Of a stretch of 20,000 bases of DNA, positions 965 to 19,057 are shown in pieces (within the stretch, counting starts at the first letter, position 1; every line of letters starts with the position of its first letter). The position numbers were made by a program, and so were the translations under genes. Under the pieces are notes generated by a model, which was not told the DNA's origin, searched no databases, and saw nothing but the letters and a program-made list of their open reading frames with translations. Where the stretch lies: sequence record SRR22947725_171; one strand, 5' to 3'.

Positions 965-1945
965 CTACTTCTGCCAATTCGGTAGTGAGTCATATCCCAA
1001 CTGCAATAAAAGATGCGGTACATCGACAAACACCCAATTTTCCACTAAAAGCTCATTTTCACGGCGCCACCAATCACAAACACGCATAAAAACTCGCTCG
1101 TTGATTGGGCCTTGTCCTAGGAAAGGTTTGATGTTAACCCCTGTCAAGGATGGCCAGCCTCCTGAACAGGTGTAATTACCCTCGCCAAATCTTGTGAAGT
1201 GTTTTGTAAAGCCATTGTTTTTTGTTCCGCCTGACCATCCTTCAAACTGAGATTCAAACGGGACCTGAAATGAAGCGAATTCGTCAACACCAATAAAAGA
1301 GCCAAACGCACCCGGTCCATACCACATCATATTCTTATGCCAATAGGGTCGCCAAGCCTCATCCTTTGTCGCTAATTTATCAAGCATATCAGTCACAATT
1401 TGATAGCTTTGCTGGCCTTCAGCAGGATCTAAAGAACTTTTGAGAACGCCATCTTGTGATGCAGGCCCTTGAATTAGTCCAGTGTAACCTCGCGAAAGTC
1501 CTGGGCCCATATCCAAAGGCCACTGATTACAAGCAATCATCAGTTCAGGAATGTCTAGATAGATATAGCTTTCAACAGCTTGGCCTTTCTCAATACGGTG
1601 GAATTCACCATAGCGAATATAACTAAGCGTTTTCGTCGCTTTAAGGCCAATCCAATCTCTTACAAATTGCCCCACATAATAACCTGTTGAGCTAATCCAA
1701 TTTTGTCCCTCAAATTCTCCAGCCATGAAGATATCATCGCGCCGATAAAGGCCTTCAAATGAGTATTGAAGTGGCAATAAAAATTCATTAAGGTAGACAT
1801 CAGCACCTTTTAACTGATTAAACGGATGGACAACATTAATGTCAGCATCCTCACTGTAAAAACTCGCAATGTTCGAAGAGAAGTCTCCCGGATGGCTCAA
1901 TGCATTTGCATATGTTAAATAAAGTTTACGATTATTTATTGACAT
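965..1945 (-). CDS. Two-domain SnoaL/NTF2-like ('ester cyclase' family) protein
   Basis: 326 aa with two repeats ending in YIRYGEFHRIEKGQAVESYIYLD and FMRVCDWWRRENELLVENWVFVD. It aligns by eye over its full length with 8269-9324. Confidence 0.8.
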   Translation of the reverse strand: MSINNRKLYLTYANALSHPGDFSSNIASFYSEDADINVVHPFNQLKGADVYLNEFLLPLQYSFEGLYRRDDIFMAGEFEGQNWISSTGYYVGQFVRDWIGLKATKTLSYIRYGEFHRIEKGQAVESYIYLDIPELMIACNQWPLDMGPGLSRGYTGLIQGPASQDGVLKSSLDPAEGQQSYQIVTDMLDKLATKDEAWRPYWHKNMMWYGPGAFGSFIGVDEFASFQVPFESQFEGWSGGTKNNGFTKHFTRFGEGNYTCSGGWPSLTGVNIKPFLGQGPINERVFMRVCDWWRRENELLVENWVFVDVPHLLLQLGYDSLPNWQK

Positions 1946-2004
1946 AATTTTTTCTTTTAAATTAGATAATCCTTAGATCAACTTAGTGCATAAATGTTTT
2001 AAAA

Positions 2005-2709
2005 CTAGGTACGGGATTTTTCAAAATCCTCCCATGCTTTTTTAAAATCATCAAAACTAAATTCTGTTTTTTCTGCAGGATCTAATATGAGCCTCTCAGA
2101 TGCAAACAACTTGTGAATTGAATCTTTCAAAATAGGTATAACTTCAGAAGGAATTACAACAGCTCCATGACGATCAGCATGAATTAACTCGCCTGGTGCC
2201 ACAGTCATACCAAAGATATTTACAGGGGTATCTATCTCACGCACATGGACAAAACCATGACTAGGACCAACCGATCCTGCAACAACTGGAAAGGCTTCAG
2301 CAAGATCCCCTAAGTCTCTCATTACTCCATTTGTTAGAGTTCCTGATAGTCCAAACCCTTTGTGAACTTTTGTATTAATCTCACCCCAATAAGCGCCAAT
2401 ACAATCAGGATAGTCAACATCCTCAATTACAGTGACCATTGGCCCATCAACCTCGGACATATATCGGTAGTAATTCATTCTGCGCTCTTTAATAATATCT
2501 TGATTTTCGGTCGGCGGATCAAGTGCAGCAATTTTTGCAGTCTTGGCAAAACCAACTATAGACCCACCTTCAGGATCTGAGCAAATCATTGTGCCTCGTG
2601 TAAACTTTGAAAAACCCCTTTTGCCTTGAGCCACTTCGATAGCATTACAGACCGTTGGCGTATCAACTGAGCGAAGGAGTGTGAGTAATTCTGGATCTAA
2701 TTTAGCCAT
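2005..2709 (-). CDS. RraA-family protein, HMG/CHA aldolase-like
   Basis: Motifs DTPTVCNA, AYWGEINT, TNGVMRDL (G-x-x-R-D) and PGELIHADRHGAVVIP match the RraA/LigK fold. Confidence 0.85.
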   Translation of the reverse strand: MAKLDPELLTLLRSVDTPTVCNAIEVAQGKRGFSKFTRGTMICSDPEGGSIVGFAKTAKIAALDPPTENQDIIKERRMNYYRYMSEVDGPMVTVIEDVDYPDCIGAYWGEINTKVHKGFGLSGTLTNGVMRDLGDLAEAFPVVAGSVGPSHGFVHVREIDTPVNIFGMTVAPGELIHADRHGAVVIPSEVIPILKDSIHKLFASERLILDPAEKTEFSFDDFKKAWEDFEKSRT

Positions 2710-3386
2710 TTTTTTAATACCTCTGTTGTTTCTTTTGGTTGCTCTAATGTAGGAATATGACCAGCATTGTTAATAATTTTTAACTCTGAATCATTGATTA
2801 TACTATGCATCAACTCATGCCTTTCTACTGGACATAATATATCGTTTGAGCCACATATCACCAATACTGGAACCGCAATTAAGCGCAATGTACTTTGTTG
2901 GTCTACTCTTGTTTTCAAGGCCTTTGATTGATTTATAAATACTTCTGGGCCCATCGATTTAGCCATCTCCATACAGGTATGGAGGATACTCTCTCGATTA
3001 TCACTAGCATCTAAATAGTTAGGCTTCATCTCATCACGCATGACATCAACAAGCTTGCCTTCCTTTGCAGCCTTCATTTGAGGGTCTCTCATCGCTTTAA
3101 CCTCTTCAAGCTCCGCTTTATGATTGGTATCCATAAGCACCAACTTTTCAATTCGACTGGGCTCCTGGGCGTACATCTCCATAGCGACAATACCTCCCAT
3201 AGAATGACCTAAGAGATGAAACTTGGGTGGTGATTTTTTGAGTACTTCAGCTGCTAAGTCCTGAACAGTTGAATGTCCAGAAATATCTGCGACAATAATC
3301 CTTATTGAATCGCTAAGTCCTTCAATTTGTGGTGCAAAAATACGTTCATCACACATCATTCCAGGAATCATAACAAGAGTCTTCAC
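2697..3386 (-). CDS. Alpha/beta-fold hydrolase
   Basis: Nucleophile motif GHSMGG, acid in GSNDILCP and His in AGHIP. The GTG start overlaps the upstream TAG (TAGTG). Confidence 0.9.
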   Translation of the reverse strand: MKTLVMIPGMMCDERIFAPQIEGLSDSIRIIVADISGHSTVQDLAAEVLKKSPPKFHLLGHSMGGIVAMEMYAQEPSRIEKLVLMDTNHKAELEEVKAMRDPQMKAAKEGKLVDVMRDEMKPNYLDASDNRESILHTCMEMAKSMGPEVFINQSKALKTRVDQQSTLRLIAVPVLVICGSNDILCPVERHELMHSIINDSELKIINNAGHIPTLEQPKETTEVLKKWLN

Positions 3387-4516
3387 TATTGATTGCTCGC
3401 AATCTTAGCACCCTCGGATAGTGACTCTAGCTTAGCAAATGCAATGTCTGGATCCACTGCACCAAAACCTGCAAAAGTACCAAAACCGCAATCTGAACCC
3501 GCAATGACTCTCTCTTTTCCGACTATATTGACAAATTTATTAATTCGTTCAGCCACCAACTCAGGATGCTCAATAAAGTTAGTTGTTGTGTCTACAACAC
3601 CTGGAACAAGTATTTTAGTATCAGGTATTTCACTCTTACGATCACGAAAAACTGTCCATTCATGAGCGTGTCTAGGGTTTGATGTCTCAAATAAAGTATA
3701 TCGAGCCTTTGCTTTCATCAATGTTCCAAAAACTTTATTCATATCAATATCACAGCAATGAGGTCCCTCATAATTACCCCAACAAATATGAATTCTTACT
3801 TTTTCTTCTGGAACATTCGACAAGGCATGATTCAGTGCCTCCATATGTGATTCTGCAATCTTTATGAATTCAGAGTCAGATAGATCACTGAAAAGCATAT
3901 GCCGAGATAAAGCAAGATCAGGGCAATCAAGCTGCAAGTCTAAGCCCGATGCGACAATTGTTTCATACTCATCTTTCATTGCATCAGCTAGTGCTGCTAA
4001 ATATGCATCTCGAGTTGGATAGTAATCATTCTGCAAAAATAAAGAAATGACGCCAGGTGATGCTGCATTCATAAAGCCTCTTTGAACTTCATTTACAGAC
4101 ATTGCTTTTTTTAAGTTTAAAATATCTTTTTGCAGTTCCCCCTGTCCTTTTGATTTAACTTCACCTGTGCACATCGGCCTAGCATATTGAGGCGTTCCAC
4201 CATCATCAGAAAGCCTTTTTAAAAATCCTGGGAAGAGCTTCAGATCTTCTGGAGCATTTCTAGGGCTATCTCCAGAAAATCCCGTATATCTGTCTTTAAC
4301 ATAAGTTGCATATGATATTTTTGAGGTTTCTCCATCACTCACAATATCAATGCCCGCTTTTTTTTGCTTTTCAACTGTAGTCAAAACGTTGTTTTGCATG
4401 CATGCATCAAAACTTTTTTCATCATACTCTTGATTATTTTCTCTTGCAAAAATATAATCTACAACCTCTTGACCTCTTGGCAATGAACCTACATGGCTCG
4501 TTAAAATTCTACTCAA
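3386..4516 (-). CDS. Stand-alone cobalamin-independent methionine synthase II (MetE C-terminal)-family Zn-thiol alkyltransferase
   Basis: N-terminal HVGSLPR and SDGE; Zn ligands in HICWGNY, LFETSN and GSDCGFG. It is only 376 aa, so it lacks the N-terminal MetE barrel. TTG start with AGGAGAA Shine-Dalgarno at 4521-4527. Confidence 0.88.
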   Translation of the reverse strand: MSRILTSHVGSLPRGQEVVDYIFARENNQEYDEKSFDACMQNNVLTTVEKQKKAGIDIVSDGETSKISYATYVKDRYTGFSGDSPRNAPEDLKLFPGFLKRLSDDGGTPQYARPMCTGEVKSKGQGELQKDILNLKKAMSVNEVQRGFMNAASPGVISLFLQNDYYPTRDAYLAALADAMKDEYETIVASGLDLQLDCPDLALSRHMLFSDLSDSEFIKIAESHMEALNHALSNVPEEKVRIHICWGNYEGPHCCDIDMNKVFGTLMKAKARYTLFETSNPRHAHEWTVFRDRKSEIPDTKILVPGVVDTTTNFIEHPELVAERINKFVNIVGKERVIAGSDCGFGTFAGFGAVDPDIAFAKLESLSEGAKIASNQ

Positions 4517-4539
4517 TTAATTCTCCTATATAAAATAAA

Positions 4540-5505
4540 CTATTCTCTCCATGTTGACCCTGCTGGGTCGTTTGTTTTTGTGACTTTAAATAAGCTCGCT
4601 TCATCTAAACCAATAGGGGTCATCTTGTAGGATAAGTCGGGGCGGATTAAGCAAGTATCTCCAGCAGAAATGCGAGTTGAATTTCCATCCCACTCGAGAG
4701 TCCATTCTCCTCTCATAACCATGTTGACTTCGTATTGGCTGGGCGAGTGCATTTCGTCAACAAAGGTCTCATTCGAAATGAAATCCACCTCAAACCCTGG
4801 CTTATCTTTCAAAAGACCATTAGCTCCTATGACCTTAAGTGGTGTGTCTTTAGAGTGGTGAGATAAGTCTGATGCACTGACAAAAAAATTACTCATAAAC
4901 GCTTCTGTAGAAACCTTTGGGAAGTTTTTAAGCTCTTCATCAGTTAATAATTGCATGGGTGCAATATGCTCTGGAAGCAACTCTCCATTTTTTGTGTCAT
5001 ATAAGACTCCATTATCTCCAAGCAGAAGTCCAAAATCCTTAGCTTCATTAATCACCTCAGGGGCCCACGTCACACCGCCCCCAGCATCATCACCACCAAG
5101 AATGGCCATTAACATTCCATAGCCATCTCCAACATTTTCAAAGGCTCTAAATATCCCTGTTGGTATATTCACCAAGTCGCCTTCATTTGCAAACAATTCT
5201 CCATCTTCACCATAGCGTCCCCAGAAAAAACGCCAGCTTCCCTTGAGCACATAAAAGACTTCAGCAGTTGTGTGAGTATGCAAAGAGTTCTTGCAACCAG
5301 GTGGTTGTCCAGCCGCACCTATATTAAAACCTGGAGTTTCATTAATATGTACATGCTGGTCTCGACTTTCTGAAACACCGCCACCAATAATAGTAAAGTT
5401 TTCTTTTTGATCAGATCCTGGTGTATGGGCATCAATGAAAGCCGTCTTGCAAGGCTTCAAGTCTGAATACCTAACGATAAATTTTTCCATTTCTTCTGGA
5501 GTCAT
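4540..5505 (-). CDS. Bicupin-like protein
   Basis: N-terminal cupin motifs HTHTTAEVFYVLKG and GDLVNIPTGIFRAFEN; a degenerate second cupin in EVNMVMRGEW...AGDTCLIRP. Confidence 0.8.
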   Translation of the reverse strand: MTPEEMEKFIVRYSDLKPCKTAFIDAHTPGSDQKENFTIIGGGVSESRDQHVHINETPGFNIGAAGQPPGCKNSLHTHTTAEVFYVLKGSWRFFWGRYGEDGELFANEGDLVNIPTGIFRAFENVGDGYGMLMAILGGDDAGGGVTWAPEVINEAKDFGLLLGDNGVLYDTKNGELLPEHIAPMQLLTDEELKNFPKVSTEAFMSNFFVSASDLSHHSKDTPLKVIGANGLLKDKPGFEVDFISNETFVDEMHSPSQYEVNMVMRGEWTLEWDGNSTRISAGDTCLIRPDLSYKMTPIGLDEASLFKVTKTNDPAGSTWRE

Positions 5506-5508
5506 TTT

Positions 5509-6477
5509 TTAACCTGTCTTAATGATGATTTGTTTCCAGATTGCTGTTTCATCGAAGAGTGTATATTCTCTCCTAAGCCCCCAAGGTCCAAATTCTGCAT
5601 GTGAAACGCCCATTACATATAAGTCAGCACCAGTAGGCTCACCAAAAATACCCCAACCATCATGCTTGCCTTTAAGGTTCCATCTCACTGCAGCTCTGGG
5701 AGAGAGGTGACTATCTTCACGTCCAATTTGATGTTCAACTGTAAAAACTGCGCTTGGCATAGAAGAGCGTAGCCCTCTCCAAAACTCTTCAGCATCCACA
5801 TACGAATGACCACATACCCCTCCTGGGTATTCTAGATGACATCCACGATCATATTCAGATCTATAAACCGAAGCGTCGTCGATCATAATACGATTAAGTA
5901 TATCGACATACTTTTCACCCCACACATTCGTATTTCCATTGCCGATGTAGGGGCCTTTCTTGTCCATAGAATCATTAAATGGATGGTTGCATTTTTCTAT
6001 GCCGCCTTCGAGATTTATTTGATCTCTTGCAAAATCCTTTGGCATCATTCCTAGCTGGCGAACAATAGCGCCCTGATCTCGAATTAACCATTCATCATTT
6101 ACTTGATTGTTAATAGCATGACAGTCTGCGATTGTTCTAAAAACAACCTTCTTACCTGTTGCCTTCCCAAATGAGCCATCTCCCAGATGAGAAGCTGTAG
6201 AAATAATTCTATGTGAGGACAACATACCGGTCTCCGGTGTCCCTGACCAAATTACATCTTCTCCTAATAACTTGCGATCAGGAAATTCTGATAATGTTGC
6301 TTTTGTTGCATCAATAACCGTCTTATTTCCAATCACAAGGGAGGATGGGGCCCTTAAAATAATATCATCTGAGTACAAGTAAAGGAGCTTATCAATACCC
6401 CTTTCTTCCCAAATTTCATGAGTAATGCCATTAATCCAGTCAGGAAAATTAGCATATTGTGAATCAAACCCTTTCAT
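5509..6477 (-). CDS. Two-domain SnoaL/NTF2-like protein (divergent from the other three)
   Basis: Two repeats containing HLGDGSFGKATGKKV...DEWLIRD and HDGWGIFGEPTGADL...REYTLFD, the H-x-G-x-F/G-x-P/A-T-G pattern of the ester cyclase family. Confidence 0.8.
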   Translation of the reverse strand: MKGFDSQYANFPDWINGITHEIWEERGIDKLLYLYSDDIILRAPSSLVIGNKTVIDATKATLSEFPDRKLLGEDVIWSGTPETGMLSSHRIISTASHLGDGSFGKATGKKVVFRTIADCHAINNQVNDEWLIRDQGAIVRQLGMMPKDFARDQINLEGGIEKCNHPFNDSMDKKGPYIGNGNTNVWGEKYVDILNRIMIDDASVYRSEYDRGCHLEYPGGVCGHSYVDAEEFWRGLRSSMPSAVFTVEHQIGREDSHLSPRAAVRWNLKGKHDGWGIFGEPTGADLYVMGVSHAEFGPWGLRREYTLFDETAIWKQIIIKTG

Positions 6478-6488
6478 TCTATTCTCTC

Positions 6489-7502
6489 CTATTTATCAGA
6501 AATTTTTGCCGAACCCCTAACCATTAGTGGTCCATCAATTTCAATTCTTCTAGCAGTTGTTGTTTTATTTTCAATACTCTCAATTAGAATTGAAACCGTT
6601 TCAGCTACCATTCGATTGGCTGGCTGTCGAACTGTTGTTAAATCATAAGCAGGCCATGAGGAAATAGGCACATCATCATAACCAACGACAGAAACTTGTT
6701 CAGGGACTTGTAATCCTAGCTCAAACCTAATAACATCGATTACTGCAATTGCCATAGCATCATTAGCAACGAATACTGCATCTGGAAAATGTTTTTTAGA
6801 AAACATTGTTCGCGCTGCTTGTCTGGCTTCATCAGAATTAAAGTTACCCACTTCTCTTGCATATAATTCCTGTCCATTTCTAACTAGTTCTTCAGTAAAG
6901 CCTTTTTCTCGGTCTCGTTGAGTCGATGCCCCCTCCCAACCAGCAATATATCCAATACGCTTATGCCCACCTGCCAAAAGAAATCTAGCAACTTTCTGAC
7001 CACCTTGAAAATTATCAGAGGTTACCGCCGATAGCCTATCATCATCTTGAGTTCGATTAAATAAAACAACTGGAACACCTGCAGAGGTGCATCTCTTAGC
7101 AAGGTCTGAGGACATAGAAACCGAAGCAGCTATAATGCCATCAACTTGATAATCTAAAATTTCATCTACCGCATCAGCAATGTCACCCTCTTTGTTTCCA
7201 GACATAAAAATTAAAACGTGATAACCTTTCTTTTGAAGAGCACTTGAGAGTAACTCCAAAGCCTCTGGATAAAAGTAGTTATCCAAATATGCCACTACGA
7301 GCCCAATCATTCGAGACTTTCCTGTGATTAATGAACGCGCTAACACATTGGGCCTATATCCTAATTCTGCTGCTGCTTTACGAACTAGCTCGTTTGTTTT
7401 CTTAGAGGATGAAGCACCAGGTGTGAAGACCCTTGAAACAGCAGACTGGCTTACACCAGCTAATTTTGCTACCTCCATTGATGTAATTTTTTGAGTGCTC
7501 AT
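6489..7502 (-). CDS. LacI-family transcriptional regulator
   Basis: HTH TSMEVAKLAGVSQSAVSRVF, hinge LGYRPNVLARSL, C-terminal VSVVGYDD and LTTVRQP. Confidence 0.96.
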   Translation of the reverse strand: MSTQKITSMEVAKLAGVSQSAVSRVFTPGASSSKKTNELVRKAAAELGYRPNVLARSLITGKSRMIGLVVAYLDNYFYPEALELLSSALQKKGYHVLIFMSGNKEGDIADAVDEILDYQVDGIIAASVSMSSDLAKRCTSAGVPVVLFNRTQDDDRLSAVTSDNFQGGQKVARFLLAGGHKRIGYIAGWEGASTQRDREKGFTEELVRNGQELYAREVGNFNSDEARQAARTMFSKKHFPDAVFVANDAMAIAVIDVIRFELGLQVPEQVSVVGYDDVPISSWPAYDLTTVRQPANRMVAETVSILIESIENKTTTARRIEIDGPLMVRGSAKISDK

Positions 7503-8272
7503 TAGTCCGCTGTCCAGCCCCCATCAATCATCAATGCTGAACCTGTAATCATGCCAGATGCCTCTGAGGCTAGAAATACCACTGCCCCCATAATATCTTC
7601 AACTTCACCTGCACGTCCAAGTTTTATTTTTTCTTCAATCCACTTTTTGCGTTCAGGATTATCAAATGTAGATTGTGTTAACGCCGTTCGGATAAATGTT
7701 GGGCAAATTGTGTTGACCCTAATTTGATGGCCTCCCCATTCAATTGCCATGGCCTTTGTAAAGCCCTCTACAGCATGCTTGGAAGCAGAATATACCGCTC
7801 GGTCTACTCCGCCAACATGTCCCATTTGAGAAGAAATATTAATTAGTGAGCCTGGTTTTTTTGCCTTTATCAGTCCTCTTGCTACTGCTTGTGTCAAAAA
7901 GTAAGCACCCCTAAGATTGACATCCATGACCTCATCAAAATCCTCAGTAGAGGTTTCTAATGAAGGTGAATGACGACCCATGCCAGCACTATTTACAAGG
8001 ATATCAAAGGGCTTTTGATTTTTAAAAAAAAGCTCGATTGCGTCTGTATCAGCAATATCCAGCTGAACAGCCTCAACACTATTGCCCTTTAATTTTATTG
8101 CATCAGAAGCTTTTTGAAGAGCTTCAATATTTCTTGATGCCAAGACGACCTCAGCGCCTGCATCCGCAAGTGCTACAGCACAAGCCAGACCAATGCCAGA
8201 TGAAGCTCCCGCAATAAGGGCAGTTTTATTATCTAATCTAAAAGATGGTGTAGTCGGAAGTTTCAAAATCAA
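7502..8272 (-). CDS. Classical SDR NAD(P)-dependent oxidoreductase (sugar-acid/polyol dehydrogenase-like)
   Basis: Motifs AGASSGIG, NSAG, NISS, catalytic YSASK and C-terminal DGGW. The TTG start overlaps the upstream TGA. Confidence 0.93.
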   Translation of the reverse strand: MILKLPTTPSFRLDNKTALIAGASSGIGLACAVALADAGAEVVLASRNIEALQKASDAIKLKGNSVEAVQLDIADTDAIELFFKNQKPFDILVNSAGMGRHSPSLETSTEDFDEVMDVNLRGAYFLTQAVARGLIKAKKPGSLINISSQMGHVGGVDRAVYSASKHAVEGFTKAMAIEWGGHQIRVNTICPTFIRTALTQSTFDNPERKKWIEEKIKLGRAGEVEDIMGAVVFLASEASGMITGSALMIDGGWTAD

Positions 8273-9324
8273 TTACCGTTTATGTTTTTAGCTTTGTTAA
8301 ATTCTCTTAATCTACCGAGAACATCAACACCAATTTGATTATAGATATCCAGAATATCTATCATGACCCAGTTTTCCCTTATTTTTCCTTCTTCCAACCT
8401 CCAAAAATCAAGTGACCGAAGAAAAACCTCTTTATTACTTGGGGCGATACCCATCCAGCCATCATGAGTGAGTGTTTGTTTCATATTTGGCCAGCCAGTT
8501 ACAGCTGCATATTCTCCATCTCCAAAAAAGTGATATCCAATTTGATCCCCCCAACCATCTCTCTTACTATAAGTTGTATCTTTTCCTCTGTCTGGCATAG
8601 CATTCAAAAATGGTATTTGATGCCAGTTTCTAAAACCTTCAATGCCTCTTCCACTTCCTATTCCAGAGGGACCATACCAATTCATTTTGGGATGCCAATA
8701 GTAATCCATTTTCATGACCTCAGGACCGCCCTCAGAGGGATGCTTTTTCATAGCATTAGCCATTCCTAGAATATGCTCCATTGAGGCATCACTTTTTTCA
8801 GGGTCATATGGACTATCTGAAATCCCATCCATTGTTGCTGGGCCTGGGACGCACCATTCTCTTCCAAGAGTTGGGGCCATTGGCCAAGAGTCAGACTGCA
8901 TCATAAGTTCTGGTATGTCCCACAACGCCTGAACTTCAATTATTTTGTCCTCCTGAAAGCAATAAAATTCATGGAATCGCATATGTGCAATATGGCCAGT
9001 TGGAGGGATATCTAAAAATGACTTTAAAAAAGTACCATTGTAAAAGCCAGCACATCCAACCCAATGCAAATCCTTTTCAGTTTTCCCAGCGATAACGATA
9101 TAGTCTCGTCTTTCAAGATCAGGCATTGATTCAAACAGTGGTTTAAGTGCTTGATTATAAAAACTAGTTGGACCTAGAATATCTCCAAAAGGGTGGGATA
9201 GATGAATAATCGCCTCCTCATCAAATAGAGACTCGAGGCCACTTCGAACTCCATCCTCCGTAAAACTATACATACTCAATCTTAGAGGCTTTATTAGCTC
9301 TTTAAGATGGTTGGCTCTATGCAC
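8269..9324 (-). CDS. Two-domain SnoaL/NTF2-like ('ester cyclase' family) protein
   Basis: Contains FLDIPPTG...MRFHEFY...WDIPELM and WMGIAPSNKEVFLRSLDFWRLEEGKIRENWVMID. Paralog of 965-1945. GTG start. Confidence 0.82.
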   Translation of the reverse strand: MHRANHLKELIKPLRLSMYSFTEDGVRSGLESLFDEEAIIHLSHPFGDILGPTSFYNQALKPLFESMPDLERRDYIVIAGKTEKDLHWVGCAGFYNGTFLKSFLDIPPTGHIAHMRFHEFYCFQEDKIIEVQALWDIPELMMQSDSWPMAPTLGREWCVPGPATMDGISDSPYDPEKSDASMEHILGMANAMKKHPSEGGPEVMKMDYYWHPKMNWYGPSGIGSGRGIEGFRNWHQIPFLNAMPDRGKDTTYSKRDGWGDQIGYHFFGDGEYAAVTGWPNMKQTLTHDGWMGIAPSNKEVFLRSLDFWRLEEGKIRENWVMIDILDIYNQIGVDVLGRLREFNKAKNINGN

Positions 9325-10634
9325 TACTGGGCCGCCTTCCCATATGGTACGTCTTCACCGCCATAGCGCCTAACCCTTATATTGGCTTGCTCTGCATGAC
9401 CAACAAAAGACTCTAACATGCAAAGTCGAGAGCAATATCTTCCAATCTTTACGGCTGCCTCATCCGTTGTTATTTTTTGATAACTATGCGTTTTGAGATA
9501 CTTTCCTACCCAGAGACCGCCTGTATAACGCCCCGCTTTTTTAGTCGGCAAAGTATGGTTAGTTCCAATCACCTTATCACCATTCGATACGTTTGTTCTT
9601 GGACCCAAGAATAGTGCTCCATAAGAATGCATATGATCTAAAAACCAGTCATCACGGTCAGTCATAACCTGAACATGTTCTGAAGCAATATCATTGGCAA
9701 CTTCTAGCATTTCATCATAAGTATCACAAACAACAACCTCGCCATACTCTGCCCAGCTGACACCCGCCGTATCTGCTGTCGGAAGAATCGTTAGTATTCT
9801 ATCAATCTCTACTTGTGTTTCTTCGGCAAGTTTTTGACTGTTCGTAACCAAAACCGCTGGTGAGTTATAGCCATGTTCGGCTTGACCTAAAAGGTCAGTT
9901 GCACATAGTTCAGCATCAACTGTCTCATCAGCAATAACCATCGTTTCTGTAGGTCCGGCGAATAAGTCAATACCAACTCTACCAAAGAGTTGTCTTTTAG
10001 CCTCAGCCACAAATGCATTACCAGGGCCAACGAGCATATCTACTGGATTAATCGACTCAGTTCCAAGAGCCATAGCTCCAACAGCTTGAATACCTCCAAT
10101 CACATAAATTTCATGAGCGCCGCCAAGATGCATTGCAGCAATTACGGCTGCGTTTGGCGCACCTTGATATGGCGGAGTGCAGGCTACAATTCTAGGAACT
10201 TTTGCAACACTAGCAGTCACAACTGACATATGCGCTGAAGCGACCATAGGAAACTTTCCTGCTGGTACGTAGCAACCTACTGACTGTACAGGAATATTTT
10301 TGTGTCCAAGAATAACACCTGGCATTGTTTCAACTTCGATATCTTGCATTGAGTCTCTTTGGGCCTGGGCAAAATTCCTGACCTGTTCCTGTGCAAACTT
10401 GATATCTTTCATATCTCTATCAGACACATTTGCAATAAGGCCATCAATCTCAGCTGAACTTAACTTGTATGATTTTGGTGAGTAATTGTCAAACTTTTCT
10501 GAGAACTCTCTAATAGCAGAATCTCCTTTTTCTTCAATTACTTTTAAAGTATTTTTGACAACTTCACTAACCTCAGCATCATCAATTGCTTTGTCAGCAG
10601 CTGTCTTTCCTTTTTTTAAATATTTAATAGCCAT
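9324..10634 (-). CDS. Histidinol dehydrogenase-superfamily enzyme, HpsN (sulfopropanediol 3-dehydrogenase)-like paralog; probably not biosynthetic HisD
   Basis: Motifs [44 protein letters not shown] and [13 protein letters not shown]. It has GDK rather than the GDY of biosynthetic HisD, and no his genes are nearby. Confidence 0.88.
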
Positions 10635-10645
10635 AATAATTCCAA

Positions 10646-11149
10646 TTAATTAGGTTTTGGTGGTTGGACTTCACCTCGATCAAACGTTTCCCAACCCATT
10701 CCATTGAAAACATCAATTCCGAGTTGAGACAATATGCTTGGAAAATCAACATTAACCCAATTATCAATAATGAGGCCATCTCTGACTTCCCAAAAATCTG
10801 TGTAATGAATTTTCACACGCTGATTCGTTGGCCTAATACCCATGAATTCACCACTATGAAGCGCATCGATGTGTCCAAAACAGGAAGCCCATTCACCATC
10901 CACAAGAAACTTGTCCGTCTTATATATCCGATCTGTAAAGGCTGCTCTTAATGGCAGCTGCCAGTTATTTCTAAACTCCTCAAGGTTGTTTTTTATGCCG
11001 CAGCCCTGGTTGCCCATCCAGCGAAACTCTTTATGAAAATATTGATCCATGTCATTTGAGTTAGCTCCCAAAGCATCTTCCATTGCCTTTACAACTTCAA
11101 GAGTTTTTTGAGATTTTGAATCATAACTCATAGGAAGCTCAACACTCAT
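10646..11149 (-). CDS. Single-domain SnoaL/NTF2-like ('ester cyclase' family) protein
   Basis: [15 protein letters not shown]...[18 protein letters not shown]...LSQLG is a canonical SnoaL-like signature. Confidence 0.88.
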
Positions 11150-12197
11150 TTTCTAACATTTGACCAGTTTCACTGTCAAATAATAAACACAAGTTAGCAG
11201 AAATATTGGCCATCACATTAGAGCCAATATCAACATGATAATTCTTATCCGACTTCATCGAAATAAGTTCGTCGCCAGGCCTAACTGAAACCATAGTCAT
11301 ATCACCAAGTAGCTCCATTGAGAATGCTGGCGCTGAAATATCACCCTTGGATTTGACGATTACAGCGTCCTCCGCACGGAAACCCAGGGTTATACTTCCA
11401 TTATGCTTTTTACTCAACCCTTTAATCTTAACTCCCTCACTCGTAAAGACGCCATCGCTTATTGATCCTTTTAATAGGTTCATCGCAGGTGATCCAATAA
11501 AGCTTGCTACAAAACTATTAGCCGGTTTATTGTATATTTCTTGAGGTGTTCCAACCTGTTGTACAATTCCAGCATTCATTACTACAACTCGATCTGCAAG
11601 GGTCATGGCTTCAACCTGGTCATGGGTCACGTATATTGTGGTAACTTTTAAATTATGCTGTAGATTTTTAATTTGCGCCCTTGTGGAAACACGTAACTTG
11701 GCATCTAAATTTGATAACGGTTCATCCATCAAGAAAACTGTTGGCTCTCTCACAATTGCCCTAGCTAGTGCTACTCTTTGTCTCTGTCCTCCGGATAGCT
11801 CGGCAGGTTTTCGATGCAAAAAGTCATTCAATTCGACCATCTCCGAAGCGTTCATTACTTTTTCATCATGAAGCGCTTTATCAATCTTCCTAACCTTAAG
11901 TGGAAAACGAATATTTTCATAGACTGTCATGTTGGGATAGAGCGCATAGGATTGAAAAACCATTGCTACGTCGCGATCCTTTGGCTCTAGAGTATTGACT
12001 ACTTTACCCTTAATGAGTACTTCTCCACTAGTGATGGTTTCTAAACCAGCTATCATTCTCATTGTCGTAGTTTTACCGCAGCCAGAAGGGCCCAACAATA
12101 CTAAAAACTCTTCGTCAGCTATTGTAAGGTTAAAGTTATCAACTCCTACAAAACTACCCCATCTTTTTGTTAGATTTTTTAATTCAATTTCTGCCAT
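11139..12197 (-). CDS. ABC transporter ATP-binding protein, MalK/UgpC (CUT1) type
   Basis: Walker [10 protein letters not shown]-loop VFQSYALYP, signature LSGGQRQR, Walker B FLMDEP, H-loop VTHDQ and FIGSPAMN. Confidence 0.96.
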
Positions 12198-12246
12198 AAT
12201 ATTTGTATGTAAACTAATTCCTAAAACTTAAGTATTGCAAGCATAA

Positions 12247-12260
12247 TGCATACGATTGCA
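12247..12260. promoter_or_regulatory. Putative LacI-family operator O1 (TGCATACGATTGCA)
   Basis: Imperfect 14-bp palindrome with central CG. It overlaps the predicted transcription start of the minus-strand operon, which encodes a LacI regulator. Confidence 0.7.
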
Positions 12261-12264
12261 AAAT

Positions 12265-12275
12265 ATTATAGCACA
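12265..12275 (-). promoter_or_regulatory. Sigma70 extended -10 promoter of the 12-gene operon (TGTGCTATAAT)
   Basis: The reverse complement of attatagcaca is TGTGCTATAAT, a perfect TRTGnTATAAT about 70 nt upstream of the ATPase start. Confidence 0.7.
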
Positions 12276-12300
12276 TGGTTTTTTCTTATAAAGATAATGT

Positions 12301-12314
12301 TGCAATCCTATGCA
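12301..12314. promoter_or_regulatory. Putative LacI-family operator O2 (TGCAATCCTATGCA)
   Basis: Its reverse complement TGCATAGGATTGCA matches O1 at 13 of 14 positions. Confidence 0.62.
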
Positions 12315-12333
12315 AAAATAAATTTATTTTTAT

Positions 12334-12362
12334 TTCAAATTTACAAGTTTTGCAAATAAAAT
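12334..12362 (+). promoter_or_regulatory. Possible sigma70 promoter for the carnitine genes (TTCAAA-N17-TAAAAT)
   Basis: Near-consensus hexamers with 17-nt spacing, upstream of a purine-rich AAGGGGA ribosome-binding site and the ATG at 12392. The AT-rich background weakens the call. Confidence 0.3.
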
Positions 12363-12391
12363 AACTAATGTTCAGATAAAGGGGAAATGAC

Positions 12392-13303
12392 ATGACAAAC
12401 CTTCAACCATCAAGAGAAGTCTTTATTACCTGCGCCGTCACTGGCTCTGGTGATACAACTGGTAGATCAGAAAAAGTTCCAATTACACCTCAACAAATTG
12501 CAGACTCATGTATCGAGGCAGCTGAAGCAGGCGCTGCAATTGTGCATATTCATGTTCGTGATCCAGAAACTGGCATTCCAGCTCGTGATCCTAGACTATA
12601 CAGCCAAGTTGTTAATATCATCAAAGAGTCAAAAGTTGATATGGTCATCAACTTTACTGCTGGAATGGGTGGTGACATTGTTTTTGGGTCAGCTGAAAAG
12701 CCTTTCCCACTGGATGAAGCTGGTACCGACATGGTTGGAGCAACAGAGCGGCTTGAACATGTCCGTAATCTACTTCCAGAGATATGCACCATCGATTGCG
12801 GCACTATGAATTTTGGTCATGGCGATTATGTAATGACCAATACCTCCTCAGTTCTGCAAGAAATGGCACGCCAGGTTCAAGCGCTTGGGGTCAGGCCAGA
12901 GATTGAGTGTTTTGATACTGGACATTTACAATTAGCTATCTGGTTAAAAAATCAAGGACTTATTGATGACCCTGTGATGATCCAGCTATGCATGGGCATT
13001 CCTTGGGGAGCGCCAGATGATATGCATACATTCTTAGCAATGACCTCCAGTATTCCAAAGGACTGGACTTTTTCAGCCTTCTCTATAAGTAGGAATCAAC
13101 TTCCATTTGTTGCAATGTCAATCCTAGCAGGGGGTAATATTCGTGTAGGACTTGAGGATAATATTTATCTTAAAAAAGGAGTTCTTGCGACAAATGGCGA
13201 CCTTGTTAAACAGGCAGTTAAGACTGCTGAAGGAATGGGTTGCACAATCATAGGACCAGAGCAAGTTCGTAAAAATTTAAAGCTTGAAAAGCGCTGGGGA
13301 TAG
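12392..13303 (+). CDS. cdhC: BKACE (DUF849) beta-keto acid cleavage enzyme, probable 3-dehydrocarnitine cleavage enzyme
   Basis: Motifs ITCAVTG, AGAAIVHIHVRDP, DCGTMNF and RVGLEDN. It lies directly upstream of a carnitine dehydrogenase. Confidence 0.88.
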   Translation: MTNLQPSREVFITCAVTGSGDTTGRSEKVPITPQQIADSCIEAAEAGAAIVHIHVRDPETGIPARDPRLYSQVVNIIKESKVDMVINFTAGMGGDIVFGSAEKPFPLDEAGTDMVGATERLEHVRNLLPEICTIDCGTMNFGHGDYVMTNTSSVLQEMARQVQALGVRPEIECFDTGHLQLAIWLKNQGLIDDPVMIQLCMGIPWGAPDDMHTFLAMTSSIPKDWTFSAFSISRNQLPFVAMSILAGGNIRVGLEDNIYLKKGVLATNGDLVKQAVKTAEGMGCTIIGPEQVRKNLKLEKRWG

Positions 13304-13305
13304 TT

Positions 13306-14778
13306 ATGAAAAGTATTAAGTCTGCAGGTGTAATTGGAGCGGGCGTTATTGGAAGTGGTTGGATTGCAAGGCTAATACTCAATGGAATTGATGTCTGTGT
13401 TTTTGATCCTTCAAAGGATGCTCCAAAGAGTGTTGAAAAAGTCATTAATAATGCAGAGAGAGCTTATAAAAATTTACTCAGGTCCCCACTTCCAAAAAAA
13501 GGAGTGTTGTCATTTCTTGATACCATTTCAGAAGTTGCAAAATCTTCAGAAATAATTATCGAAGCTGTTCCAGAAAGGCTTTCTGCAAAGCAATCTGTTT
13601 ATAAAGAAATTGAGTTAAATGCTTCTAACGAATTAATCATTACCTCATCTACCTCAGGAATTCTTCCATCTGATTTGCAGTCAGAAATGAAAAATCCAGA
13701 AAGATTAACTGTGGCCCATCCATTCAATCCAGTTTATCTTCTGCCTTTAGTTGAGGTCGTTGGTGGATCCAAAACTTCACAAAAAGTAATCGACGAAACG
13801 TGTAGTATTTTTTCTAATATTGGGATGTTTCCTCTTCATATTAAAAAGGAGATACCCGCATTTATCGCTGACAGGTTACTTGAGTCTGTCTGGCGAGAAG
13901 CATTATGGCTAGTCAATGATGATATTGCAACGACAGAAGAGATTGATGATGCAATTCGTTATGGTTTTGGGCTTCGCTGGGCACAAATGGGGCTGTTTGA
14001 AACATATAGACTAGCTGGAGGTGAAGCAGGGATGCGTCACTTTATTTCACAATTTGGGCCCTGCCTAGAATGGCCATGGACTCACTTGATGGATGTACCT
14101 GAATTTACAGAAGAGCTTGTAGACAAAGTGTCAAATCAATCAGATGACCAATCTGGAAAGCGCAGTATTGACGAACTTATGCAAAAGCGAGACGACAATT
14201 TAGTTGACTTCTTAAAGGTTTTAAAAGAAAACCGATGGGGCGCTGGCAATACCTTAAAAGAATTTGATGATAGCCTAGGTAAGTCTAGGATAGACTTTTC
14301 TGAATTAGATGTATCTAAACCCTTAAAAACCTTTTCAACTCATATTCCTAAAGATTGGGCTGATTATAATGGTCACATGACAGAGGCGCGCTACCTAGAT
14401 TGTTTTTCAGAAGCAACTACTGAGCTGATGGCCATCATTGGCGCTGATGAAGAATATATTTCGAATATAGGCTCCTACTTTACTGTTGAAACGCATATTC
14501 GTCACCTAGATGAAGTACTTATTGGTGAGGGTATTCATTCTAAAACTCAAGTAATATATGGTGAAAATAAAAAACTACATCTCTTTCACTGGCTCCATCA
14601 TAATGACGGAAGGCTTTTAGCTACAGCAGAGCATATGCTCATTCATGTAGACTTAAAAACACGGGGCGCGAGTATGCCAGGAGATTCAGTCATTGAGAAA
14701 ATGGAGCGCATATACAGCGCACATAAAAATTTACCTAAACCTGAGGGCTTAAGTCGAGCCGTTGGAGACAAAGTTTAA
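13306..14778 (+). CDS. lcdH: L-carnitine 3-dehydrogenase fused to a C-terminal hotdog (betainyl-CoA) thioesterase
   Basis: N-terminal 3-hydroxyacyl-CoA dehydrogenase fold (GAGVIGSGW, EAVPE, SSTSG, HPFNPVYLLPLVE, GLRWAQMG) plus thioesterase motif WADYNGHMTEARY. Confidence 0.9.
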   Translation: MKSIKSAGVIGAGVIGSGWIARLILNGIDVCVFDPSKDAPKSVEKVINNAERAYKNLLRSPLPKKGVLSFLDTISEVAKSSEIIIEAVPERLSAKQSVYKEIELNASNELIITSSTSGILPSDLQSEMKNPERLTVAHPFNPVYLLPLVEVVGGSKTSQKVIDETCSIFSNIGMFPLHIKKEIPAFIADRLLESVWREALWLVNDDIATTEEIDDAIRYGFGLRWAQMGLFETYRLAGGEAGMRHFISQFGPCLEWPWTHLMDVPEFTEELVDKVSNQSDDQSGKRSIDELMQKRDDNLVDFLKVLKENRWGAGNTLKEFDDSLGKSRIDFSELDVSKPLKTFSTHIPKDWADYNGHMTEARYLDCFSEATTELMAIIGADEEYISNIGSYFTVETHIRHLDEVLIGEGIHSKTQVIYGENKKLHLFHWLHHNDGRLLATAEHMLIHVDLKTRGASMPGDSVIEKMERIYSAHKNLPKPEGLSRAVGDKV

Positions 14779-16316
14779 TACCATTCGTCTTTCATACTCT
14801 CTTTCTTTTTAGCAATAAAATCAACTAATCCTTCGTCTATAGACTGATCAAGAGATGGCTCGACATAGTTATCAAGCATTTCATTCCACCGCTCATAAGC
14901 TCTTTGCTGAGAATCCTTTGAGCCATCTTCTTCCCACTGCTCAAAAGAGTTGTTGTCGGGCAGTTCAGCACGATAATTTGCGGTTTCAAAATTTTCTGCA
15001 GTATGCTGAGTACCAAGAAAATTTTCACCAGGAGAATTTTCTAAATAAGCAGCTGTAGCTAATGAATTGTCATCAATAGTAAGCCCTTCAAACATTCTAT
15101 GTAGCATTCCTAGACGGTCTACATCAAGCATAAATTTTTCATAGCCAACTACCAATCCGCCCTCCAGCCAACCGGCTGCTTGATGAATAAAGTTTGCCCC
15201 AGCTAAAATTGCTGGATAAATTGAATCAACCGACTCTTGCATAGCCTGAGCATCAGCAACCTTTGAGGCAGTGTAGTGACCACCCGCCCTAAATGGAAGG
15301 CCTACCCTTCTGGCCATCTGCCCAACTGCATAGGTAGCTAAACTTGATTCAGCAGTTCCAAAGGTCGGTGCGCCTGACTTAAGGTCCATTGTTGTCAAAA
15401 AGTTTCCATATACTGCAGAAGAACCCGGTCTAATTAATTGCGTTAGAGCAACACCGACAAGGGTTTCAGCATGAGCCTGAGCGATGGCTGCTGGCATGGT
15501 CACAGGAGACATTGCCCCGCCAAGAATAAAAGGAGTGATTACAACTCCTTGATTTGCCCTAGCATAGCCTTTTAGAGCGTCGGTCATGGTCTTGTCATAC
15601 ACAAGGGGTGAGTTCACATTTATATTTCCTTGTATAACGCAATTTTTATCAACGATATCCTTACCAAAAACAATACGCGCCATTTCAATTGAATCCTTTA
15701 CTCTGTCAAGTGCCGTTACAGATCCCATAAACGGCTTATCTGAATATTTTAAATGTGAATAAACCATATCTAGATGACGCTTGTTCACTGGAACATCAAC
15801 TGGTTCACAATTAGTGCCACTTGTATGATGAAGCCATGGGGTCATATGCGAAAGTTTTATCAAATTATTAAAGTCTTGCATATTGCCTTGACGTCTCCCC
15901 CCCTTTAGATCGTAGACAAAAGGAGATCCATAAGCTGGACCTAGTACCAGCTTATTACCCCCAAATATGGTTGATCTTTTAGGGTTTCTTGCGAGCATTT
16001 CAAACTCACTGGGAGCAGTTTTACAAAGGCTTTGGATAAGACCTTTATCAAACTTTACAAGGGTTCCTTTAACGGTTGCCCCTGCTTCTTTAAATAAGTT
16101 TAATGACTCTTCGTCATCCCAAAACTCAAGGCCAACCTCTTTAAGAATCCAATCAACATGATCATCAATCTTTGACAGCTCTTCTTCACTGAGCATGTCG
16201 TAACACTTGATATTTCGTGTTAAATATCTAGGAGGTTCAATTTGTTCAGCTTTTTTTCGATCAGCAATTTTTGCTGACCGTCCACCCACTCTCCTTCTGT
16301 GCTGATGATCTGACAT
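14775..16316 (-). CDS. Non-pyrrolysine MttB-superfamily (trimethylamine/quaternary amine) methyltransferase
   Basis: 513 aa with PAYGSPFV, EPVDVPVNKRHLD, NVNSPL, MDLKSGAPTFG, SKVADAQA and AGWLEGGL; no in-frame TAG. Confidence 0.92.
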   Translation of the reverse strand: MSDHQHRRRVGGRSAKIADRKKAEQIEPPRYLTRNIKCYDMLSEEELSKIDDHVDWILKEVGLEFWDDEESLNLFKEAGATVKGTLVKFDKGLIQSLCKTAPSEFEMLARNPKRSTIFGGNKLVLGPAYGSPFVYDLKGGRRQGNMQDFNNLIKLSHMTPWLHHTSGTNCEPVDVPVNKRHLDMVYSHLKYSDKPFMGSVTALDRVKDSIEMARIVFGKDIVDKNCVIQGNINVNSPLVYDKTMTDALKGYARANQGVVITPFILGGAMSPVTMPAAIAQAHAETLVGVALTQLIRPGSSAVYGNFLTTMDLKSGAPTFGTAESSLATYAVGQMARRVGLPFRAGGHYTASKVADAQAMQESVDSIYPAILAGANFIHQAAGWLEGGLVVGYEKFMLDVDRLGMLHRMFEGLTIDDNSLATAAYLENSPGENFLGTQHTAENFETANYRAELPDNNSFEQWEEDGSKDSQQRAYERWNEMLDNYVEPSLDQSIDEGLVDFIAKKKESMKDEWY

Positions 16317-16447
16317 ATAAATCTTATGATAAATTTAGAATTTAAAAGAAATCTAAATTCATGTTAACTAAGAGCAAGTCAAAACTCAAGTTAAAAAATT
16401 AGAGAGATTTGTTGAATTATTTTAATTAATATAAATATATTAGTTGT

Positions 16448-17059
16448 TTAGAGTGAGCGTGTTTGACAAAGCACCCTTCCACTTATTGGTGCAGAAATAG
16501 TTCTCCTATATGCCTCAATAATACGTTTTTCAGATGTCGGCTCAAAGCCATCAAAGACCATTCCATAGTCCTCAACTGAATTCTCAATAATAGAAGGCGA
16601 AACAATATTTATTCTAAGTCTACCTGCATACTCTGCAGCCAATGTTGATACGCACATGTTTAATGCCCCATTAGCAGCAGCTGCACAGGAGCCTGACAAA
16701 ATTGGCTCATCACCAATGATGCCACTAGTTAGAGTGATTGATCCATTTTCAGTTAAAAAAGGAATTGCTGCCTTTGCTAAATTAAGTTGGCTAAAGCACT
16801 TATTAGATAACCCTAAGGCAAAGTCTGCCATGGTCAATTCCTCAAATGTTTTGAAAGGAGCTCGAACACCAGCACATGAAATTAAAGCATCGAAAGATCC
16901 GATCGAAGCAAATACATCAGACACGCTTTCAAAGTCCAAAGCATCAATTTTTAAATCGGGTCCAGTGCGGCCAGCACGAATCACCTCATAATCTTTAAGT
17001 CCTCCAACTACAAGTCTTCCAAGTCTTCCAGTTGCACCAACAACAATAATTTTTTTCAT
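16448..17059 (-). CDS. Short atypical SDR-fold oxidoreductase
   Basis: Rossmann motif VVGATGRLG, ITLTSG and RINIVSP. There is no YxxxK; CAAAANGAL occupies that position. Confidence 0.8.
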   Translation of the reverse strand: MKKIIVVGATGRLGRLVVGGLKDYEVIRAGRTGPDLKIDALDFESVSDVFASIGSFDALISCAGVRAPFKTFEELTMADFALGLSNKCFSQLNLAKAAIPFLTENGSITLTSGIIGDEPILSGSCAAAANGALNMCVSTLAAEYAGRLRINIVSPSIIENSVEDYGMVFDGFEPTSEKRIIEAYRRTISAPISGRVLCQTRSL

Positions 17060-17098
17060 AATGCCTCTTACAGTTTAAATAATAAAATAATGATATCA

Positions 17099-17680: not shown

Positions 17681-17682
17681 AG

Positions 17683-18981: not shown

Positions 18982-19057
18982 AACTCCCCCATCACTACCT
19001 TTAAAGTAAACAGTATAAGAGAATTAGAGATTCGTTATTAGTAAATATTAAATTTGT

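Follow-up and report, generated by a model that had tools for sequence, protein, structure and literature searches.

A conserved LacI-type catabolic regulon of marine bacteria with mycosporines and gadusols as candidate substrates

The stretch of DNA analysed here (the window; 20,000 nucleotides of sequence record SRR22947725_171) carries a run of twelve minus-strand genes headed by paired LacI-type operators, and this run is part of a real, undescribed and conserved catabolic regulon of marine bacteria. From gene content, active-site residues and module swaps in distant relatives, we infer a pathway whose C4 end is probably fairly well constrained, and whose substrates we think are rather likely to be mycosporine-like amino acids (MAAs) or gadusols. 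MAAs consist of 4-deoxygadusol bearing amino acids, amino alcohols or amines; abundant and rich in nitrogen, they serve algae, cyanobacteria, corals and fungi as UV sunscreens. That bacteria convert MAAs was reported earlier (PMC3083659); in the literature covered, from which subscription journals are mostly absent, we found no genes for it, no paper on the cluster or on MAA catabolic genes, and no assigned substrate for close clusters, in line with the original prediction (an earlier reading of the letters of the window), which matched the run to no known pathway. If true, our reading would name the transporter, regulator and enzymes of MAA breakdown, and the turnover of MAAs could be quantified in metagenomes of the ocean. 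Three of the enzyme activities would be new, and genes commonly mislabelled hisD, metE or polyketide cyclase would receive proper names. We lean slightly towards regarding the regulon as the first set of genes with which bacteria would mineralise mycosporines and gadusols completely, comprising NTF2 amidine hydrolases, a new cupin dioxygenase for cyclohexanediones and a HisD-family dehydrogenase that takes 3,4-dihydroxybutanoate to L-malate, with land versions tuned to the fungal mycosporine-glutaminol.

Layout, control and conservation of the regulon

The original prediction had described twelve co-oriented genes with six overlapping junctions and gaps of at most 59 nt, and the open reading frame (ORF) coordinates bear this out. 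Twelve minus-strand ORFs occupy positions 965..12197 in the order claimed (Table 1), with gaps of -11, 11, -1, -4, -1, 11, 3, 23, -1, -13 and 59 nt between them. The family labels of all twelve are backed by Pfam; the SnoaL protein encoded at 965..1945 matches under the cut-off and is 32% identical to the SnoaL protein encoded at 8269..9324.

Operators had been predicted for the operon, and two palindromes of the form TGCA-WW-CG-WW-TGCA were found upstream of it (TGCATACGATTGCA at 12247 and TGCAATCCTATGCA at 12301), where 0.10 would be expected by chance and two sites occurred in 0 of 200 shuffles. With one mismatch allowed, the operator is present in 55 of 80 loci of relatives, whereas three shuffles gave 0, 4 and 9; the sites in relatives are often paired, about 54 bp apart. 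It also occurs in loci of Deinococcus, Pantoea, Novosphingobium, Sinorhizobium, Vibrio and Ensifer, and is common to the marine and land variants of the cluster and to the Ensifer variant with Otn genes described below. The operon's own LacI protein is the likely binder of the pair. The claim of a single strong promoter did not hold up as well: the best candidate, located between the operators, matches 10 of 12 consensus positions plus TG, yet the region holds 31 promoter-like sites against 32.0 +/- 6.1 in shuffles, i.e., chance level, so that the promoter is plausible only. Contigs from RNA libraries span the operon in 4/4 runs together with much flanking sequence, from which neither an expression level nor a single transcript follows.

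To gather relatives, species genomes were scanned with the HisD-like protein of the run; at least 581 were confirmed, and the best 80 loci (79-93% identical) were read. Among these 80 loci, the short-chain dehydrogenase/reductase (SDR) was present in 73, LacI in 70, the type-C NTF2 protein in 68, the cupin in 64, the MetE-like gene in 58, RraA in 52 and the hydrolase in 43, with contig ends cutting some loci. The genes stay together, as had been claimed: the same families recur in mostly the same order, and the full gene order is found in Ruegeria lacuscaerulensis ITI-1157 (L053). As a marker, the cupin was found in 28 of 401 evenly sampled Pseudomonadota genomes, 16 of those 28 belonging to one alphaproteobacterial family; within that family, sampled at one genome per genus, 52 of 121 have it. 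Across those 121 genomes, which are kin and not independent, 48 have both the cupin and the MetE-like gene, 4 the cupin only, 2 the MetE-like gene only and 67 neither.

The nearest genome (G001; 98.5% nucleotide identity over window positions 1544-20000) shows how far the regulon extends. Past the last SnoaL gene, G001 has a second operator pair followed by five further genes, encoding a sugar-type binding protein, two permeases, a glucose-methanol-choline (GMC) oxidoreductase and a fifth NTF2/SnoaL protein. This second operator-led unit implies a regulon of about 17 genes in two units, of which the twelve-gene run is one. The prediction of a complete twelve-gene unit therefore stands for the run itself but not for the extent of the regulon, to which the five further genes, binding protein and permeases included, have to be added.

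The HisD-like enzyme and the C4 end of the pathway

The HisD-family protein of the run (clade A, HisD-A) has as its best Protein Data Bank (PDB) matches HpsN (E 4e-107), an enzyme of 2,3-dihydroxypropane-1-sulfonate (DHPS) catabolism. HpsN carries the signature G-R-Y-A/S-H and binds the sulfonate through its His126 (PMC11382572). In contrast, HisD-A reads GKFPM, both in the window protein and in 81 of 83 homologs, and lacks His126, while the catalytic residues E319, H320, D353 and K354 (Glu318, His319, Asp352 and Lys353 of HpsN) are kept in 83/83 homologs and the zinc residues are invariant too. Because His126 is lost while the catalytic residues and the D353-K354 pair are kept, HisD-A should oxidise a small anionic vicinal diol other than a sulfonate. 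Three HisD-family genes occur in G001: besides HisD-A, there are an HpsN of the GRYAH type, which belongs to a full hps cluster, and a HisD of the biosynthetic type. HisD-A is 44% identical to that HpsN and 30% identical to the biosynthetic type, which has D-Y where HisD-A has D-K. On TIGR00069 (histidinol dehydrogenase) HisD-A scores 428.8 against a cut-off of 243.8, so that pipelines will label the gene hisD, as was foreseen.

The likeness to DHPS catabolism (HpsN/HpsO/HpsP; PDB 8V35 and 8WWE; PMC11382572, PMC11131964) lies in a HisD-family Zn/NAD+ enzyme beside an SDR, in catalytic residues and a D-K pair identical to those of HpsN, and in the predicted ketone reduction followed by four-electron oxidation of a vicinal diol, as with HpsO and HpsN. 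The differences are the GKFPM motif, the predicted carboxylate substrate, a Met in the operon SDR at the position of RpHpsO Gln147 (Ser+2), and a cluster without HpsP, SuyAB or TRAP (tripartite ATP-independent periplasmic) transporter. The SDR is 35% identical to the HpsO of G001, and a basic residue at a position like its R47 is typical of NADP(H) users. A Pfam scan found no zinc-dependent HpsP in the window, and the complete hps-type cluster of G001 lies elsewhere in its genome (L087 4248-12610: TRAP, GntR, HpsP-like, HpsO-like, HpsN with GRYAH, and SuyB-like genes). The earlier statement that the run is not the DHPS cluster is upheld by this separate cluster and by the absence of His126 and HpsP.

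Distant relatives were read in two sets: plasmid loci (19 stretches picked for diversity from 55-57 matching records, 15 of them holding cupin and aldolase) and 23 loci with cupin and aldolase from an unbiased Pseudomonadota sample (the phylum sample). What persists in them is a core in which the cupin is accompanied by an alpha/beta hydrolase and a 2-oxo-acid aldolase of the RraA or HpcH type. In each of the 15 plasmid loci that bear the cupin by threshold, a serine hydrolase and an aldolase are present as well, and none of these loci holds the MetE-like gene. The aldolase itself varies in type: among the 52 of the best 80 loci that have both cupin and aldolase it is RraA only in 51 and both types in one, the plasmid loci have RraA in 4 and HpcH in 11, and the phylum sample has RraA in 13, HpcH in 9 and both in one. 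The HpcH-type proteins match 2-oxo-4-hydroxy-acid aldolases, under the cut-off, and their fold is unrelated to that of RraA. For both families the cleavage of 4-hydroxy-2-oxo acids to pyruvate is established chemistry, and the use of two unrelated folds for one job points to a 4-hydroxy-2-oxo acid that is split with release of pyruvate. In the RraA protein, G109, E110, R131 and D132 are kept in 52/52 homologs; in the HMG/CHA aldolases (LigK/GalC), which act on 4-hydroxy-4-methyl-2-oxoglutarate and 4-carboxy-4-hydroxy-2-oxoadipate, such G-E and R-D residues form the metal and pyruvate-enolate site. On the LigK/GalC model TIGR02798, however, the protein scores 30.2 against a cut-off of 304.5.

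HisD-A occurs in 8 of the 15 plasmid loci with the SDR adjacent each time (7 by threshold, the eighth by annotation), whereas in 4 of the 15 HisD and SDR are absent and OtnK and OtnC, with or without OtnI, are found instead (Ensifer L098, with ORFs checked; Vibrio pelagius L099; Thioclava L101; Salinivibrio L102). Three have neither module. NCBIfam cut-offs were passed by OtnK in 3/3 cases, OtnC in 2/3 (L098 scoring 240.8 vs 250) and OtnI in 1/1, and no threonate dehydrogenase is annotated in the four loci. OtnK and OtnC phosphorylate and decarboxylate 3-oxo-tetronate, HOCH2-CO-CH(OH)-COO- (PMC12540250). The C4 product HOCH2-CO-CH2-COO- had been written down before these loci were seen. The variant loci share OtnK, OtnC and OtnI with the oxo-tetronate pathway (PMC12540250) but have cupin, aldolase and hydrolase where LtnD would be; the window, for its part, is without otn genes and G001 without OtnK. 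The swap points to a product of the form HOCH2-CO-CH(X)-COO-; the C4 compound must suit both SDR-then-HisD and OtnK/OtnC, and 4-hydroxy-3-oxobutanoate does so. A route considered at first, in which HisD would oxidise the ring CH2OH before aldol cleavage to give 4-carboxy-4-hydroxy-2-oxoadipate (CHA), was dropped because it leaves the SDR without a job and the OtnK swap unexplained.

The proposed route, its substrate and the alternatives

Joining the C4 ketone to pyruvate gives a branched C7 acid, HOOC-CO-CH2-C(OH)(CH2OH)-CH2-COOH, whose tertiary C(OH)(CH2OH) corresponds to C5 of gadusols. We take this acid to be what remains of the 4-deoxygadusol skeleton once O2 has cleaved the bond adjoining the methoxy carbon and methanol has been lost. 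In the route that we propose, MAAs would be imported by the sugar-type ABC system, and four or five NTF2 proteins would hydrolyse off the amino-acid or amino-alcohol arms, leaving 4-deoxygadusol. The cupin, with O2, would open the ring beside the methoxy carbon to give a methyl ester, from which the alpha/beta hydrolase would free methanol and leave 4-hydroxy-4-(hydroxymethyl)-2-oxoadipate. The aldolase would then yield pyruvate and 4-hydroxy-3-oxobutanoate, the SDR would reduce the latter to (S)-3,4-dihydroxybutanoate, and HisD-A would carry out its four-electron oxidation to L-malate; these last two steps would repeat on a carboxylate what HpsO/HpsN do with DHPS. That L-malate is the product from the spatial analogue of R-DHPS follows by derivation from the Cahn-Ingold-Prelog (CIP) rules. 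The net end products would be pyruvate, L-malate and methanol; the MetE-like enzyme would salvage a methyl group onto homocysteine as methionine, and the choline-dehydrogenase-like GMC enzyme of some marine loci could serve the amino-alcohol arms. Gadusol by the same route would give exactly 3-oxo-tetronate. The earlier suggestion of a degradation route for a cyclic, methylated, polyol-like molecule is thereby supported, the O-methylated C7 cyclitol core of 4-deoxygadusol being a candidate that fits.

A precedent for the predicted logic exists in 3-O-methylgallate/syringate catabolism (MgaAB/LigAB, MgaC/DesC, GalC/LigK), in which ring cleavage makes a methyl ester that meets an alpha/beta hydrolase and then a pyruvate-releasing aldolase (PMC12314914). 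The route predicted here shares this sequence of oxygenation, ester, methanol and pyruvate but differs in its non-aromatic substrate, in having a cupin for LigAB and no tautomerase or hydratase, and in a C4 product that would be a hydroxymethyl ketone where oxaloacetate is formed there.

For the upper pathway, bacteria, V. harveyi by name among them, are reported to turn shinorine and porphyra-334 into mycosporine-glycine and 4-deoxygadusol (Dunlap and Shick, cited in PMC3083659). This arm removal is what we predict, although the review's passages on the conversion name no genes or enzymes and no breakdown of the ring. The type-C NTF2 protein occurs in records named V. harveyi 1DA3, V. alginolyticus and V. 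owensii, and one V. pelagius locus consists of a transporter and four NTF2 genes only, apart from the ring-cleavage genes. Among the best 120 matches to the V. pelagius cupin, most of them unnamed, named Harveyi-clade proteins are absent. Marine loci hold several NTF2 paralogs and sometimes the choline-dehydrogenase-like GMC enzyme. Sarcosine oxidase genes and purU adjoin the V. pelagius NTF2-plus-transporter locus (L088 1-5707) and are possibly linked to released glycine or methylamine.

A second HisD clade (HisD-B) goes together with an amidase or nitrilase: 7 loci have both, one has HisD-B alone, 2 have the amidase alone and 100 have neither. The seven belong to Deinococcus, Priestia, Pantoea, Novosphingobium, Martelella, Roseibium and Devosia, in three phyla, four of the hosts coming from leaves, soil-type or freshwater settings and three being marine. 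Mycosporine-glutaminol occurs in terrestrial fungi and in cyanobacteria (PMC3083659). The pairing of HisD-B with an amidase would fit this compound because its arm has an amide and a primary alcohol.

As for the remaining enzymes, the S62-D182-H210 triad of the hydrolase is intact, which fits methyl-ester hydrolysis. The metal-site residues H76, H78 and E82 of the cupin are kept in 36/36 homologs, with Arg120 at the fourth ligand position, and its structure model has a pLDDT (predicted local distance difference test) of 84. The MetE-like enzyme scores far under the methionine synthase family cut-offs (93 vs 406; 59 vs 392) and keeps its zinc and homocysteine residues in 26/26 aligned homologs, with one Asp for Glu277. 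These four zinc ligands and three homocysteine-binding residues are those listed for the core methionine synthases MesA-D (PMC7857596), from which it differs in sitting in a catabolic regulon. With all of these residues kept, the enzyme likely methylates homocysteine.

The MetE-like gene, which the original prediction counted as part of the pathway, is indeed present in the run but is accessory and outside the core. The idea that it and the hydrolase are interchangeable demethylases was considered. In 52 loci, the MetE-like gene occurs together with the hydrolase in 35, the hydrolase occurs alone in 5, the MetE-like gene alone in 12 and neither in 0 (P = 0.25 by chance). A hydrolase homolog was found elsewhere in 10/10 tested of the 12 genomes with the MetE-like gene only, and the MetE-like gene had no match in the 5 hydrolase-only genomes. 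Hydrolase homologs match in 78 of the 121 family genomes, a second copy was found in 4/4 genomes tested that have the cluster hydrolase, and one extra copy adjoins a polyhydroxyalkanoate depolymerase gene; the homolog outside the cluster is probably a widespread paralog. Novosphingobium DesD, taken at first for a MetE-like protein, proved to be a glutathione S-transferase (bioRxiv 10.1101/160747) and was discarded.

Several points weigh against mycosporines and gadusols as substrates. The assignment itself follows from gene-content logic. The NTF2 proteins have weak PDB matches, to ester cyclases and hydroxylases (E 5e-6 to 0.07), we know of no NTF2 enzyme that hydrolyses vinylogous amidines, and an NTF2 protein in the Harveyi clade does not establish its presence in the strain of Dunlap and Shick. 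The tie of the cupin to dioxygenases is likewise weak: its single PDB sequence match is acireductone dioxygenase (E 2e-4, in two segments out of order), and in a fold search the top rank goes to oxalate decarboxylase, followed by quercetinase, with template modelling (TM) scores of 0.41-0.50. The Otn swap comes from the hand-picked plasmid set; the phylum sample of 23 has no pure Otn locus, with HisD-A only in 16, both modules in one (HisD-A, a 2-hydroxyacid dehydrogenase and a split OtnK) and neither in 6, three of the six being in genomes with HisD-A elsewhere and two on short contigs. An OtnK in another genome (G370) was dropped as support, as the gene sits in a canonical LtnD operon. Otn genes are, moreover, best known for ascorbate-derived threonate (PMC12540250). 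Finally, the HisD clade labels were seeded from the same loci that they classify, and Roseibium and Martelella, which have HisD-B, are marine, so that the link to land is not clean.

The strongest alternative, though in our view an unlikely one, keeps the same lower pathway and replaces MAAs by another branched C7 compound, such as a valiolone/valienamine-type aminocyclitol or another methylated C7 cyclitol. The aldolase and C4 swaps constrain the carbon skeleton and not the nitrogen arms, and three loci with the core triad (L100, L101 and L102) show no NTF2 gene. On the other hand, the conserved serine hydrolase and the homocysteine-binding MetE-like enzyme point to an O-methyl group, and the four or five marine NTF2 paralogs and the HisD-B plus amidase module match the side-chain diversity of MAAs. 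We hold it somewhat less probable still that the cupin does not open a ring and that the cluster serves to break down an unrelated metabolite, either N-containing or acyclic (e.g., an ascorbate- or sugar-derived reductone), with Otn enzymes for its tetronates. The established role of Otn genes in threonate catabolism, the oxalate decarboxylases at the top of the cupin's structural matches and the Arg at its fourth metal ligand would suit such a metabolite, but the Otn variants have cupin, aldolase and hydrolase in place of a threonate dehydrogenase, and ascorbate breakdown needs no pyruvate-releasing aldolase.

Two further readings appear very improbable. A lower pathway for a methoxylated aromatic (syringate/3-O-methylgallate type) ending in CHA would account for an esterase with an RraA/LigK-type aldolase, in parallel to MgaC/DesC with GalC/LigK (PMC12314914), but the RraA protein falls far short of the LigK cut-off (30 vs 304), no LigAB, O-demethylase, hydratase or tautomerase is found among the conserved neighbours examined, the importer is sugar-type and the repressor LacI, and an aromatic route of this type leaves the HisD/SDR and Otn modules without a use. 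A pathway for sulfonates of the DHPS or cysteinolate kind, with the HisD-like protein serving as another HpsN, to which the PDB match and the invariant Lys354 (a sulfonate binder in HpsN) would lend themselves, is just as hard to reconcile with the GKFPM motif, the missing His126, a cluster without HpsP and SuyAB, and the separate GRYAH hps cluster of G001.

Features of the window and neighbouring genes

Table 1. Coordinates of the features discussed, in order of transcription of the run.
Feature	Position	Strand	Basis or remark
Upstream LacI-type operator	12301..12314		One mismatch to TGCAWWCGWWTGCA
Best sigma-70-like promoter candidate, TTTATA-16-TG-TATAAT	12265..12292	-	Consensus match only, 10/12 plus TG
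Downstream LacI-type operator, directly past the -10 box	12247..12260		Exact match to TGCAWWCGWWTGCA
Sugar-type ABC transporter ATPase	11139..12197	-	UgpC subfamily score 450 vs cut-off 432; binding protein and permeases outside the window
Single-domain NTF2/SnoaL protein	10646..11149	-	Pfam; predicted amine-removing hydrolase
HisD-family Zn/NAD+ four-electron dehydrogenase, clade A (HisD-A)	9324..10634	-	GKFPM; Q251, H254, E319, H320, D353, K354, H413 kept
Tandem NTF2/SnoaL protein	8269..9324	-	Pfam; predicted amine-removing hydrolase
SDR	7502..8272	-	N94, S148, Y161, K165, R47 invariant; predicted 4-hydroxy-3-oxobutanoate reductase
LacI-family repressor	6489..7502	-	Family profile matches; operator conservation
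Tandem NTF2/SnoaL protein, type C	5509..6477	-	Orthologs in Harveyi-clade vibrios
Bicupin	4540..5505	-	H76, H78, E82 invariant; Arg120 replaces the usual fourth His; predicted ring-opening dioxygenase
MetE C-terminal-like core enzyme	3386..4516	-	Zn ligands H243, C245, E277, C343; homocysteine-binding S11, E63, D197
Alpha/beta hydrolase	2697..3386	-	S62-D182-H210 triad intact; predicted methyl-esterase
RraA/HMG-type aldolase	2005..2709	-	G109, E110, R131, D132 invariant; HpcH-type instead in distant loci
Tandem NTF2/SnoaL protein, last gene of the unit	965..1945	-	Sub-cut-off Pfam match; similarity to the 8269..9324 protein
Departure of the window from the G001 arrangement	944		Sequence common to both down to 944

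On the SnoaL/DnrD polyketide cyclase model NF033407, the single-domain NTF2 protein scores 26.8 against a cut-off of 200, and the other three are unmatched. Downstream of the run, positions 1-944 of the window hold a glycosyltransferase-41 (OGT-like) gene where G001 has the transporter unit, and one RNA-library contig continues beyond 944 with G001-like letters. The last SnoaL protein is 93.6% identical to that of G001, against 97-100% elsewhere, which suggests a recombination point or an assembly join.

On the other side, a carnitine/betaine catabolic block adjoins the operon via a common intergenic region. It comprises a divergent BKACE gene, a carnitine 3-dehydrogenase (NCBIfam score 709.8 vs cut-off 592) and an MttB-family methyltransferase (12392-14778 on the plus strand and 14775-16316 on the minus strand), and the arrangement is identical in G001.

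Several observations were made on loci of relatives. An Amidohydro_2 gene stands beside a divergent NTF2 gene in 24 of the 80 loci (e.g., L038 2910-3794). Eight loci (L016, L048, L050, L057, L059, L064, L076 and L079) have HisD-A (about 80% identical, with GKFPM where checked), the SDR and a different LacI, without cupin or NTF2; some of them adjoin genes that by sequence are labelled 3-hydroxyacyl-CoA-dehydrogenase-like or lactonase-like, and they possibly serve stand-alone 3,4-dihydroxybutanoate catabolism. The locus L124 (4371-11442) has HisD-A, a glyoxylate/hydroxypyruvate-reductase-like gene for the SDR, a split OtnK and no NTF2 match, and could serve free gadusol. Two contigs titled Nocardioides and Bacteroidetes (L049 and L059) are at least 80% identical to alphaproteobacterial genes and are probably mislabelled or transferred. 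On plasmid pSWIT02 of Rhizorhabdus wittichii RW1 (L104 9617-13017), SDR, hydrolase, HpcH and cupin genes lie between IS4 elements, and from these flanks the core module looks mobile.

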